Source: an uncultured Candidatus Saccharibacteria bacterium
GTDB lineage: Bacteria; Patescibacteriota; Minisyncoccia; 2-02-FULL-40-12; GWA2-44-9
Reading direction: 5' to 3'
NCBI GenBank assembly: GCA_964491455.1
Contig: CAZBFM010000001.1
Span: 149,388 to 213,387 of the forward strand
DNA length: 64,000 nt
Below, piece after piece: positions 14,724-15,734 of the stretch. Each line of letters starts with the position of its first letter. Position 1 is the first letter of the stretch. The position numbers and the translations under genes are program-made. The notes under the pieces were generated by a model. The model was not told where the DNA came from. It saw only the letters and a program-made list of their open reading frames with translations, and ran no database searches.

Positions 14724-15734
14724 ATGGAAAAAAAGTCACTTCTCGCGCAGCATTTCACTCCAGAGATAGAAGCGCAGCTAGCGAGCGTTCGCACGGCGAA
14801 TGGATTCACAGTCGCTGATGTCGTCCGTTCAGGGCAGCAAAACCCTGATAGTAGCGTTGGAGTGTATGCCGGCGATGAAGAGTCGTATAAGGCCTTTGCC
14901 CCGCTCCTAGATCCGGTGATCGAGAGCTACCACGGTCATGGTCCTGAGGATACGCACCAGCGAGACCTTTCTGTCGAGAGTCTCGGGGATGTGCACGATT
15001 TGGACCCGAGTGGCGAGCGCATTGTCTCCACTCGTATTCGCGTTGGACGCAATCTCAAGGGCTTTGCTTTTGCCCCTGCGATTACCAAGGAGTCGCGCGA
15101 AGAAGTCGAGCGACAGGTGGTCGCTGCGCTTTCGAGTCTTACCGGTGAGCTTGCGGGTACCTATTACCCATTGAGTGGCATGAGCGAAGAGACCGCATCC
15201 AAGCTTATCGCTGATCACTTCCTCTTTAAGGAGGGCGACCGTTTTCTCGAGAGCGCCGGAGCGAATCGCGATTGGCCGAGTGCCCGTGGTATTTTTCATT
15301 CTGCAAACAAGCAGTTCTTGGTGTGGGTGAATGAAGAAGACCAGCTTCGCATCATCTCCATGCAACCTGGTGGAAATGTGCGCGAGGTGTTCGCGCGGTT
15401 GTCGACTGCAATAGGGGAGCTCGAAAAGAAGCTCACCTTCGCCTACGATGATCGTCATGGATACCTCTCGAGTTGTCCCACGAATCTTGGAACCGCGATG
15501 CGCGCGAGTGTGCACGTGAAACTACCAAAGCTTGGCGCAACTGACGCGCTCAAGGAAGAATGTGCAAAGCTCGGCTTGTCAGTGCGTGGTATCCACGGGG
15601 AGCACTCCGAGAGCGAGGGTGGCGTGTATGACATTTCCAACAAGCGTCGTCTTGGTGTCAGTGAGGCTGAAGCGGTGAAGCTTATGGCTCATGGGGTTCA
15701 GCACCTACTGGAACTCGAGAGTACGCTCGCGTAA
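14724..15734 (+). CDS. ATP:guanido phosphotransferase of the phosphagen/arginine-kinase type, with N-terminal substrate-specificity domain
   Basis: The active-site signature CPTNLGT is present. The N-domain motif [27 protein letters not shown] resembles arginine kinases. Flanked by [15 protein letters not shown] and [13 protein letters not shown]. The ATG has AAAGGAAACC 7 nt upstream. Confidence 0.85.
   Translation: [336 protein letters not shown]

Follow-up and report, generated by a model that had tools for sequence, protein, structure and literature searches.

In animals, arginine kinase (AK) serves in ATP buffering in muscle and neurons. Here we describe a gene for an enzyme of this type at 14,724–15,734 bp of a 64,000-nt stretch of a bacterial chromosome (contig CAZBFM010000001.1; the whole stretch is called the window below). 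That bacteria can have full-length AKs has been known since 2008, first from Desulfotalea and then from Myxococcus, Sulfurovum, and others (PMC11492440, PMC6429109); they have often been attributed to transfer from eukaryotes (PMC6429109), and whether they are ancient or arrived by horizontal transfer is debated (PMC11492440, PMC6429109). The AKs of Sulfurovum, Nitratifractor, Oceanithermus, and Moritella were placed in cluster A together with ciliate and sponge AKs (Suzuki et al., 2013, cited in PMC11492440). For the AKs of Desulfotalea and Myxococcus, activity or a phenotype was reported, in stress and cold adaptation or in making fruiting bodies and spores (PMC11492440), and bacterial AKs in general have been linked to stress tolerance and development (PMC11492440). 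The related bacterial protein-arginine kinase McsB lacks the N-terminal guanidino domain of AKs and carries a phosphoarginine-binding domain (PMC11492440).

With the cluster A enzymes (Sulfurovum lithotrophicum, Nitratifractor, Oceanithermus, Moritella), the window protein shares the two-domain build, a length of about 335–350 aa with about 20 N-terminal residues fewer than animal AKs, 58–63% identity, all catalytic residues, and a stand-alone gene. The hosts differ, being Proteobacteria, Campylobacterota, and Deinococcota on one side and a member of the candidate phyla radiation (CPR; Minisyncoccota) on the other, and the CPR sequences form a subclade of their own (79% support). The animal AKs (Limulus 1bg0/1m15, Litopenaeus 4bg4, Anthopleura 4rf6) share 53–56% identity, the active site except for G64S, the AK-type specificity loop, and the predicted fold (TM score 0.85–0.90) with the window protein, which, judged by sequence and model, most likely works in the same way, but which is shorter by about 20 residues at its N-terminus, falls outside the animal group and belongs to a tiny fermentative bacterium rather than to muscle or neurons. 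The Desulfotalea psychrophila and Myxococcus xanthus AKs (clusters B and B′ of Suzuki) are full-length bacterial AKs as well and set a precedent for a role in energy buffering or stress, but they are more distant, lie outside the best 80 of the 423 loci described below and cluster with invertebrate AKs according to the literature. McsB has a homologous PF00217 catalytic domain and likewise phosphorylates a guanidino nitrogen with ATP, whereas its phosphoarginine-binding domain and its McsA, ClpC, and CtsR partners were not found with the window protein. Taking all the evidence together, we consider it likely that the gene encodes a functional cytoplasmic AK acting as a temporal ATP buffer, and that it is an accessory gene from a bacterial and CPR pool that is kept by selection.

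The gene and its parts are as follows:

14603–14723, no strand: divergent intergenic region with the 5′ signals of AK (AAGGA ribosome-binding site at 14712–14716; 95% identity to the closest species, L003)
14724–15734, + strand: AK coding sequence, 336 aa plus stop (open reading frame and translation, Pfam, PDB matches, AF2 model)
14727–14924, + strand: N-terminal guanidino-substrate domain, residues 2–67 (PF02807, 2.8e-25, profile positions 2–67 of 67)
14847–14867, + strand: putative arginine-binding specificity loop D42-S-S-V-G-V-Y48, equivalent to Limulus D62–Y68 (alignment to Limulus AK)
15102–15725, + strand: C-terminal catalytic domain, residues 127–334 (PF00217, 1.7e-76)
15474–15494, + strand: CPTNLGT motif, residues 251–257, with the reactive C251, equivalent to Limulus C271 (sequence, alignment)
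15740–15770, + strand: AK intrinsic terminator (11-bp stem at 15740–15764, 8 GC pairs, T-run)

Both Pfam domains score far above their cut-offs (89 bits against 25.7 for PF02807 and 256.6 bits against 22.4 for PF00217). The 27-residue N-terminal stretch quoted in an initial annotation of this DNA corresponds to residues 45–71 (nt 14856–14936). In the alignment, 16 of the 17 catalytic and arginine-contacting residues of Limulus AK are identical in the window protein, among them (in Limulus numbering) S63, V65, and Y68, which bind the carboxylate and amino groups of the substrate, the domain-closing pair D62–R193, the catalytic glutamates E225 and E314, the reactive cysteine C271, H284, and the five phosphate-binding arginines R126, R229, R280, R309, and R330; the only mismatch is a serine in place of G64. 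R106, E205, R209, R260, H264, R288, E293, H294, and R309 of the window protein are the counterparts of Limulus R126, E225, R229, R280, H284, R309, E314, H315, and R330, respectively. The CPTNLGT motif is invariant across all 79 aligned bacterial homologues, and so are the phosphate-binding arginines and the equivalents of E225 and E314. Compared with human CK-M (the sequence used is 100% identical to 1i0e_A), the specificity loop has a 4-residue deletion at the same place as in Limulus AK. The PDB search returned single-domain arthropod AKs at E-values of about 1e-113 to 1e-115 and, better still, the two-domain Anthopleura enzyme, the identity to the crystallised AKs being 53–56% over the full length. 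The AF2 model (predicted local distance difference test, pLDDT, 86.9; predicted template modelling score, pTM, 0.87) superimposed in Foldseek on the AK transition-state complexes 1bg0, 1p50, and 4bg4 with a TM score of 0.90, and the top 30 matches were all AKs. No signal peptide was found in the protein. By sequence and model, it is thus predicted to be a complete two-domain AK-type phosphagen kinase. The observation of the initial annotation, which rested on the CPTNLGT motif and the N-terminal guanidino-specificity domain, is confirmed on both points, and the GenBank record already names the product arginine kinase.

The reading frame extends from the ATG at 14724 to the stop at 15734 on the + strand. 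An alternative GTG start at 14655 would add 23 residues without similarity to any kinase; the ATG agrees with the start of all bacterial homologues, and the AAGGA core lies 7 nt upstream of it. The ribosome-binding site, which had been called strong, is present but is decent rather than exceptional. The 121-nt region 5′ of AK is 95% identical in L003, compared with 91% for the coding sequence. Its minus strand bears a promoter-like TTGACA-17-CATCAT element serving the divergent neighbour, orf194, while a consensus sigma-70 site for AK itself was not found in 14603–14723, nor was a leader or riboswitch 5′ of AK detected by Rfam matching. The terminator, previously described as clean, is real (ΔG −22.7 kcal/mol, z = −3.9), and L003 retains a hairpin and T-run of different sequence at this place. 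AK is a stand-alone, monocistronic unit with its own terminator.

Based on family knowledge and the conserved active site, the enzyme would catalyse a reversible phosphotransfer of the EC 2.7.3.3 type (ATP + L-arginine ⇌ ADP + phosphoarginine) on the guanidino group of free arginine in the cytoplasm. L-arginine is most likely the substrate in view of the conserved residues, and by analogy with known AKs the physiological role is most likely ATP buffering: the phosphoarginine pool would regenerate ATP when its supply falls and would smooth the ATP supply in a feast–famine, host-dependent life. The window encodes glycolytic and pentose-phosphate enzymes. CPR bacteria are largely fermentative and generally unable to synthesise amino acids (PMC13293708); therefore, arginine would have to be imported. 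Among the other bacteria with AK, many are predators (Bacteriovoracaceae) or inhabit vents or sulfidic places with fluctuating conditions.

The distribution of AK relatives was surveyed by a pattern and tblastn scan of one genome per GTDB species (185,579 genomes), which returned 423 loci. The best 80 of these are mostly from Campylobacterota (Sulfurovum, Sulfurimonas, Arcobacter, Nitratifractor), the remainder belonging to Thermaceae/Deinococcota, a few Gammaproteobacteria, Bacteriovoracaceae, Desulfuromusa, and CPR (Paceibacterota, Brennerbacteria, Saccharibacteria). Further copies from Niyogibacteria and Jorgensenbacteria were found in the protein database, and metagenomes contain dozens of distinct CPR-clade homologues. 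The statement that true phosphagen kinases are rare in bacteria is consequently borne out for bacteria at large, but it is overstated for the CPR lineage. The identities to the window protein decrease in the following order:

L003, the closest species: 95%
other CPR-clade proteins: 77, 73, 71, and 70%
other bacteria: about 58–63%
animal AKs: 53–56%
human CK-M: 45%

In a neighbour-joining (NJ) tree of 96 sequences (200 bootstraps, five animal sequences), the window protein and its L003 homologue grouped with 100% support within a 17-member clade (79%), in which five members besides the window protein carry CPR names and the rest are unclassified. A 25-member clade (81%) adds more CPR sequences, Moraxellaceae, Bacteriovoracaceae, and two Gammaproteobacteria. 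The window AK falls into one bacterial clade with the Campylobacterota (Sulfurovum, Nitratifractor), Thermaceae, and Gammaproteobacteria loci, apart from the animal sequences (56–62% bootstrap, the reference set containing no ciliate, sponge, or cluster B sequences), and all 90 of the 90 bacterial sequences are separated from the five animal ones with 56% support. A 165-sequence tree agrees with this one, its internal resolution being poor. In these trees the window AK belongs to a bacterial AK clade whose nearest members are other CPR lineages. Since the CPR AKs are not strictly monophyletic, exchange between CPR and other bacteria is likely; the immediate source of the window AK was nevertheless bacterial, most probably CPR, and not eukaryotic.

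A separate observation concerns the plasmid NZ_CP110821.1 of Candidatus Bandiella woodruffii, a symbiont of Euplotes, which carries an AK-like gene at 55251–56192 (38.6% identity over 95% of the query) that is annotated as hypothetical. No other plasmid record contained an AK-like gene of full length. Ciliates have AKs, and an AK-like plasmid gene in a ciliate endosymbiont may bear on the exchange between eukaryotes and bacteria.

The window is an ordinary bacterial chromosome. It encodes metabolic enzymes (rpiB, rpe, a PfkB kinase, a class II aldolase), translation functions (L25, a release factor, S2, EF-Ts, L33, L10/L12, CysRS, EF-P, Fmt, Def, GluRS, L9), and, among others, YceG, MraZ/MraW/PBP/Mur ligase, RecR, DnaB, HrcA-GrpE-Hsp20-DnaK-DnaJ, PriA, and envelope glycosyltransferases. 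A 652,729-bp NCBI contig encodes an identical AK protein, whose 90% cluster includes an entry deposited as "MAG: arginine kinase [Candidatus Paceibacterota bacterium]". The nearest named relatives of the DnaK encoded 25 kb from AK are from Ca. Yanofskybacteria (80–81%) and Ca. Paceibacterota (77–78%). Paceibacterota belong to the phylum Minisyncoccota (NCBI), formerly CPR/Patescibacteria (PMC13293708), and these relationships identify the host as a CPR bacterium of the Parcubacteria/Paceibacteria type. Independent assemblies of two Sequence Read Archive (SRA) runs gave the same gene in the same neighbourhood; for this reason a chimeric assembly is excluded. The initial annotation's assignment to a reduced-genome bacterium is supported by the 652,729-bp contig, the Paceibacterota cluster member, the relatives of DnaK, and a 150-aa EF-Ts.

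Several other genes of the host region deserve a record. The EF-Ts (12070–12522, + strand) has only a partial EF_TS domain (profile positions 1–70 of 204), and its counterpart in the related genome L086 (10685–11137) has the same length, so a strongly shortened EF-Ts seems to be the norm in this lineage. In the release-factor gene (9822–10670, − strand), the PCRF match starts at profile position 100, the N-terminal part seemingly missing; no RF2-type CTTTGAC frameshift site was found near this gene. A ribosomal protein L10 leader (21592–21719, + strand; RF00557, 56.6 bits) precedes rplJ, a regulatory RNA kept in a CPR genome.

AK is located between rpmG and a tRNA-Trp gene, next to the following features:

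13784–13948, + strand: rpmG (L33), conserved, bounding the variable region on its left (80–83% identity in L086/L115, L114, and L088; 67% in the more distant L091)
14018–14602, − strand: orf194, unannotated divergent neighbour bordering the variable slot on the left (Pfam, PHROG, and PADLOC without a match)
15840–16070, + strand: orf76, small orphan reading frame sharing the slot with AK (only in L001–L003, 60% in L003; not in L114 or L115)
16083–16352, + strand: orf89, small reading frame at the right edge of the slot (84% identity in L003, 47% in L114)
16397–16468, − strand: tRNA-Trp (CCA) (ARAGORN and Rfam)
16597–17715, + strand: orf372, phage-type metallophosphoesterase exonuclease (phrog_284, 6.4e-35; no Pfam match)
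17748–18035, − strand: MerR/excisionase-like helix-turn-helix (HTH) gene (MerR Pfam match, weak excisionase PHROGs, PADLOC mad1 at 4.8e-12)

Sister genomes were recovered by anchoring on rpsB and YceG. The closest AK-less ones are L086/L115 (a 270-kb contig; rpsB 83% and DnaK 87% identical to the window) and L114 (a 650,716-bp contig; DnaK 92%, TPR protein 71%, MerR 89%), while L088 and L091 are more distant. All of them have the backbone rpsB-tsf-TPR-tRNA-Thr…GIY-YIG-tRNA-Thr-rpmG-tRNA-Trp, with tRNA-Trp always following rpmG within at most 2 kb, and in L114 and L115 it continues with MerR(−)-TPR-YceG-L10-L12…MraZ-MraW-PBP. AK is absent from the corresponding loci of L086/L115, L114, L088, and L091, and tblastn found nothing in L114/L115 even at E ≤ 10; conservation among the sisters is accordingly split, as AK is present in L003 and missing from L114 and L115/L086. 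In L114, rpmG is followed by an orf194-like gene (− strand), an unrelated reading frame of 223 aa (3535–4206, + strand; HD-phosphohydrolase-like motifs H…HD…D, no Pfam match), an orf89-like gene, and tRNA-Trp (− strand). This matches the architecture of the window, and thus only AK and orf76, about 1.4 kb, differ. The orf194 product is 83% identical in L003 and 42% identical over 112 aa in L114. At the place of orf372, both L114 and L115 have an unrelated 710-aa gene, and the MerR gene is kept there with 88–89% identity. tRNA-Trp lies on the minus strand in the window, L003, and L114 (4824–4895), but on the plus strand directly after rpmG in L115 (4773–4846, L086/L115), L088 (7690–7761), and L091 (19753–19827). 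The opposite orientations next to a conserved rpmG flank point to a local inversion or a replacement hotspot. No repeats able to mediate the inversion of tRNA-Trp were identified, and a model in which orf194 and orf372 were the halves of the sisters' 710-aa gene, with tRNA-Trp flipped, was rejected (BLASTP E = 1.4 and 4.0).

AK is therefore an accessory gene in a small region of gene turnover between rpmG and tRNA-Trp. The comparison of the sisters indicates that the lineage of the window and L003 gained AK, or that the sisters replaced it, after their divergence. In the scenario that we favour, the gene would have been drawn from the pool of bacterial, largely CPR, AKs and set in the rpmG/tRNA-Trp slot after the split from the nearest AK-less sisters and before the split from the L003 species, purifying selection acting on it from then on. 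The tRNA genes on both sides, a tRNA-Thr/Tyr/Thr cluster (13224–13731) and tRNA-Trp, are real, as the initial annotation had it; they are part of the conserved backbone and not marks of an island. What remains of its suggestion that the setting fits acquisition is the finding of two sisters with the same backbone and no AK, one of which (L114) has a different reading frame in the slot, rather than the tRNA flanks, for which no integrase or att site was found.

In the tRNA cluster of the window, a stand-alone GIY-YIG gene (13418–13654, + strand) is located between tRNA-Tyr and tRNA-Thr, at the same position as in the AK-less sisters. Similar genes are also found near AK at the unrelated loci L020, L045, L035, and L112, but a partnership was rejected as coincidental, this being a backbone gene present in AK-less sisters. 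The tRNA cluster of close relatives contains a CHASE2-adenylate/guanylate cyclase gene (L086 13534–15435 and 15750–18458, the latter equal to L115 1333–3768; L114 553–2427), and within the same intervals the L086 cluster encodes an aspartokinase-homoserine dehydrogenase fusion of about 810–900 aa, unexpected for a lineage thought to lack amino-acid biosynthesis.

The AK contexts in other CPR-clade contigs are all different. Among the 67 neighbouring proteins of 13 CPR loci, no Pfam family occurred in more than three loci, and no ADI-pathway (arginine deiminase) enzyme, amino-acid transporter, or Clp/McsA/CtsR component was found. In L112, AK is situated between a Metallophos and a GIY-YIG gene; this Metallophos protein was dismissed as a partner, being unrelated to orf372 (E = 1.7). 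The notion that phosphoarginine might be supplied to or from a partner organism found no support, as there is neither a signal peptide nor a transporter or any other conserved neighbour. Independently of the window, in which it is not near AK, an HI0933-like FAD flavoprotein gene was seen convergent with or one gene away from AK in L083 (7070–8335, − strand), L084 (7064–8341, − strand), and the P0106 context, two of the three coming from the same metagenome assembly.

Sequence evolution was consistent with a resident gene. The synonymous codon choice of AK is host-typical (61st percentile of the window genes). Against L003, the ratio of nonsynonymous to synonymous substitution rates (dN/dS) is 0.087 at dS 0.35, the neighbouring genes having similar dS values (orf194 and orf76 were left out of the dN/dS comparison because of indel misregistration or saturation); AK is under purifying selection. 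The contig of P0008, an AK homologue with 71% identity, also encodes a DnaK that is 75% identical to that of the window, thus the divergence of AK is on the scale of a housekeeping protein. Codon use, dN/dS, the conserved 5′ region and terminator hairpin, and this DnaK scale together point to a long-resident, functional gene.

Some observations weigh against the interpretation of AK as a resident ATP buffer taken from a bacterial pool. We infer substrate and activity from residues. At the 13 CPR loci, AK has no linked partner such as an arginine transporter or a gene of the ADI pathway, and CPR bacteria generally do not make amino acids themselves (PMC13293708). The composition of AK is mildly atypical, its GC content (0.551) being at the 95th percentile of the 67 window reading frames and its tetranucleotide distance at the 96th; of the comparison of GC and codon usage proposed in the initial annotation, the former gave a mildly raised value and the latter a native one. 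That the sister genomes have no AK at another place is concluded indirectly, from the lack of AK homologue matches on their contigs. Finally, the trees were built by the NJ method, eukaryotes being represented by few references and ciliates, sponges, and choanoflagellates by none, and the deep nodes of these trees have only 56–62% support.

The alternative that survives best, though still unlikely, is that AK is the cargo of a decayed integrative element aimed at the 3′ end of tRNA-Trp. This end of the minus-strand gene does face the AK block, the phage-type exonuclease (phrog_284, 6e-35) and the excisionase-like HTH gene lie on its other side, and both the orientation of tRNA-Trp and the neighbouring gene content vary among close relatives. 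Nevertheless, no integrase is encoded in 13200–18200, and the tRNA 3′ end has no att-like direct repeat: a single 19-nt tRNA-Trp-like match (17361–17379) falls in the codons for the RFHHGH motif of orf372, a conserved His motif. The MerR gene belongs to the conserved backbone (88–89% in AK-less sisters), and L114 has the same inverted tRNA-Trp with the orf194-like and orf89-like genes but without AK. No AK was found on viral contigs or phage records, the only plasmid copy is the distant one described above, and phage or plasmid carriage of the window AK clade was not detected; the PADLOC defence search gave no matches except for the MerR protein resembling mad1. A 20-nt imperfect inverted repeat bracketing the block (13922–41 and 16376–95, 75%) was discarded as being at chance level among 26 such pairs. 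For the exchange of AK, recombination between the conserved genes on either side and a decayed mobile element are equally plausible.

Much less probable is a phosphagen kinase acting on another guanidino substrate (D-arginine, an agmatine-like compound, or taurocyamine) or serving mainly phosphoarginine signalling or metabolism. The replacement of G64 by Ser could be read in this sense, and specificity shifts are possible in the AK fold, as exemplified by the AK-derived taurocyamine kinase of Schistosoma. That enzyme, though, differs in its loop and lacks D62, S63, and Y68, all three of which are kept in the window protein; the serine at position 64 also occurs in the active domain 2 of the Anthopleura enzyme, which was crystallised with L-arginine (4rf7), and the equivalents of E225 and E314 are invariant in all aligned bacterial homologues. 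Furthermore, the Desulfotalea AK was characterised biochemically, and N-phosphoarginine is given as the phosphagen of the Sulfurovum enzyme (PMC11492440, PMC6429109).

Even slighter is the chance that AK was recently imported from a eukaryote, or that it belongs to eukaryotic or other foreign DNA that contaminated the assembly and was wrongly joined to the contig. The 53–56% identity to animal AKs, the slightly raised GC content, and the frequent description of eukaryote-to-bacterium AK transfer in the literature (PMC6429109) would agree with such an origin, which was also implied by the initial annotation. It does not fit with the nearest relatives, which are from CPR and then from other bacteria, the animal AKs lying outside all 90 bacterial sequences, nor with the native codon usage, the bacterial expression signals, the lack of introns, and a start like that of other bacterial AKs. 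The gene is embedded in a contiguous 64-kb CPR chromosome, is identical in independent assemblies and also occurs in a sister species, at a dS of 0.35.

Effectively refuted, in accordance with the initial annotation, is a protein-arginine kinase of the McsB type that would mark proteins for Clp degradation or inactivate a heat-shock repressor: although the C-terminal domain is homologous to McsB (PDB McsB chains at E about 1e-24 to 1e-26, for that domain only) and NCBIfam McsB models match at 1e-23 to 1e-46, all five McsB equivalog models stay far under their cut-offs (83–157 bits against 381–679; the best 156.9 against 385), the N-terminal domain is present, as are the residues contacting the α-carboxylate and α-amino groups of free arginine (Limulus S63, V65, Y68), the protein terminates directly after the catalytic domain, mcsA, clpC, and ctsR are missing both from the 64-kb window (about 58 reading frames, Pfam) and from the 67 neighbours at the 13 CPR loci, and heat-shock control in the window is of the HrcA type (HrcA-GrpE-DnaK-DnaJ).

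A full-text literature search returned no paper on AK in the candidate phyla radiation or Patescibacteria, the top-ranked papers on the CPR lineage names contain neither "arginine kinase" nor "phosphagen", and a 2026 review of the phylum (PMC13293708) mentions neither arginine nor phosphagens. The window AK is thus a known enzyme type in a host lineage for which none had been reported; as an enzyme it is conventional and not mechanistically new, and the advance lies in distribution and ecology rather than in mechanism. What emerges is an intact and constrained AK clade across Paceibacteria, Niyogibacteria, Jorgensenbacteria, Brennerbacteria, and Saccharibacteria genomes, which is of moderate interest for the physiology of CPR bacteria and for how phosphagen kinases evolved. 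In bacteria with minimal energy metabolism and no amino-acid synthesis, a phosphagen system would add a level of energy management that was not expected, and AK offers a testable handle on the survival of episymbionts between hosts. The CPR AKs also add taxa to the question of an ancient or a eukaryote-derived origin of bacterial AKs. Tentatively, and with the odds rather against it, one may go further and regard the phosphoarginine buffer as a recurrent, selected accessory trait of ultra-small CPR bacteria, in which ATP would be banked on imported arginine at host contact and spent in the host-free state, the dozens of CPR-clade kinases having spread within the radiation. If this were true, the depth and diversity of the bacterial AK clade would speak for ancient bacterial AKs and not for loans from eukaryotes.

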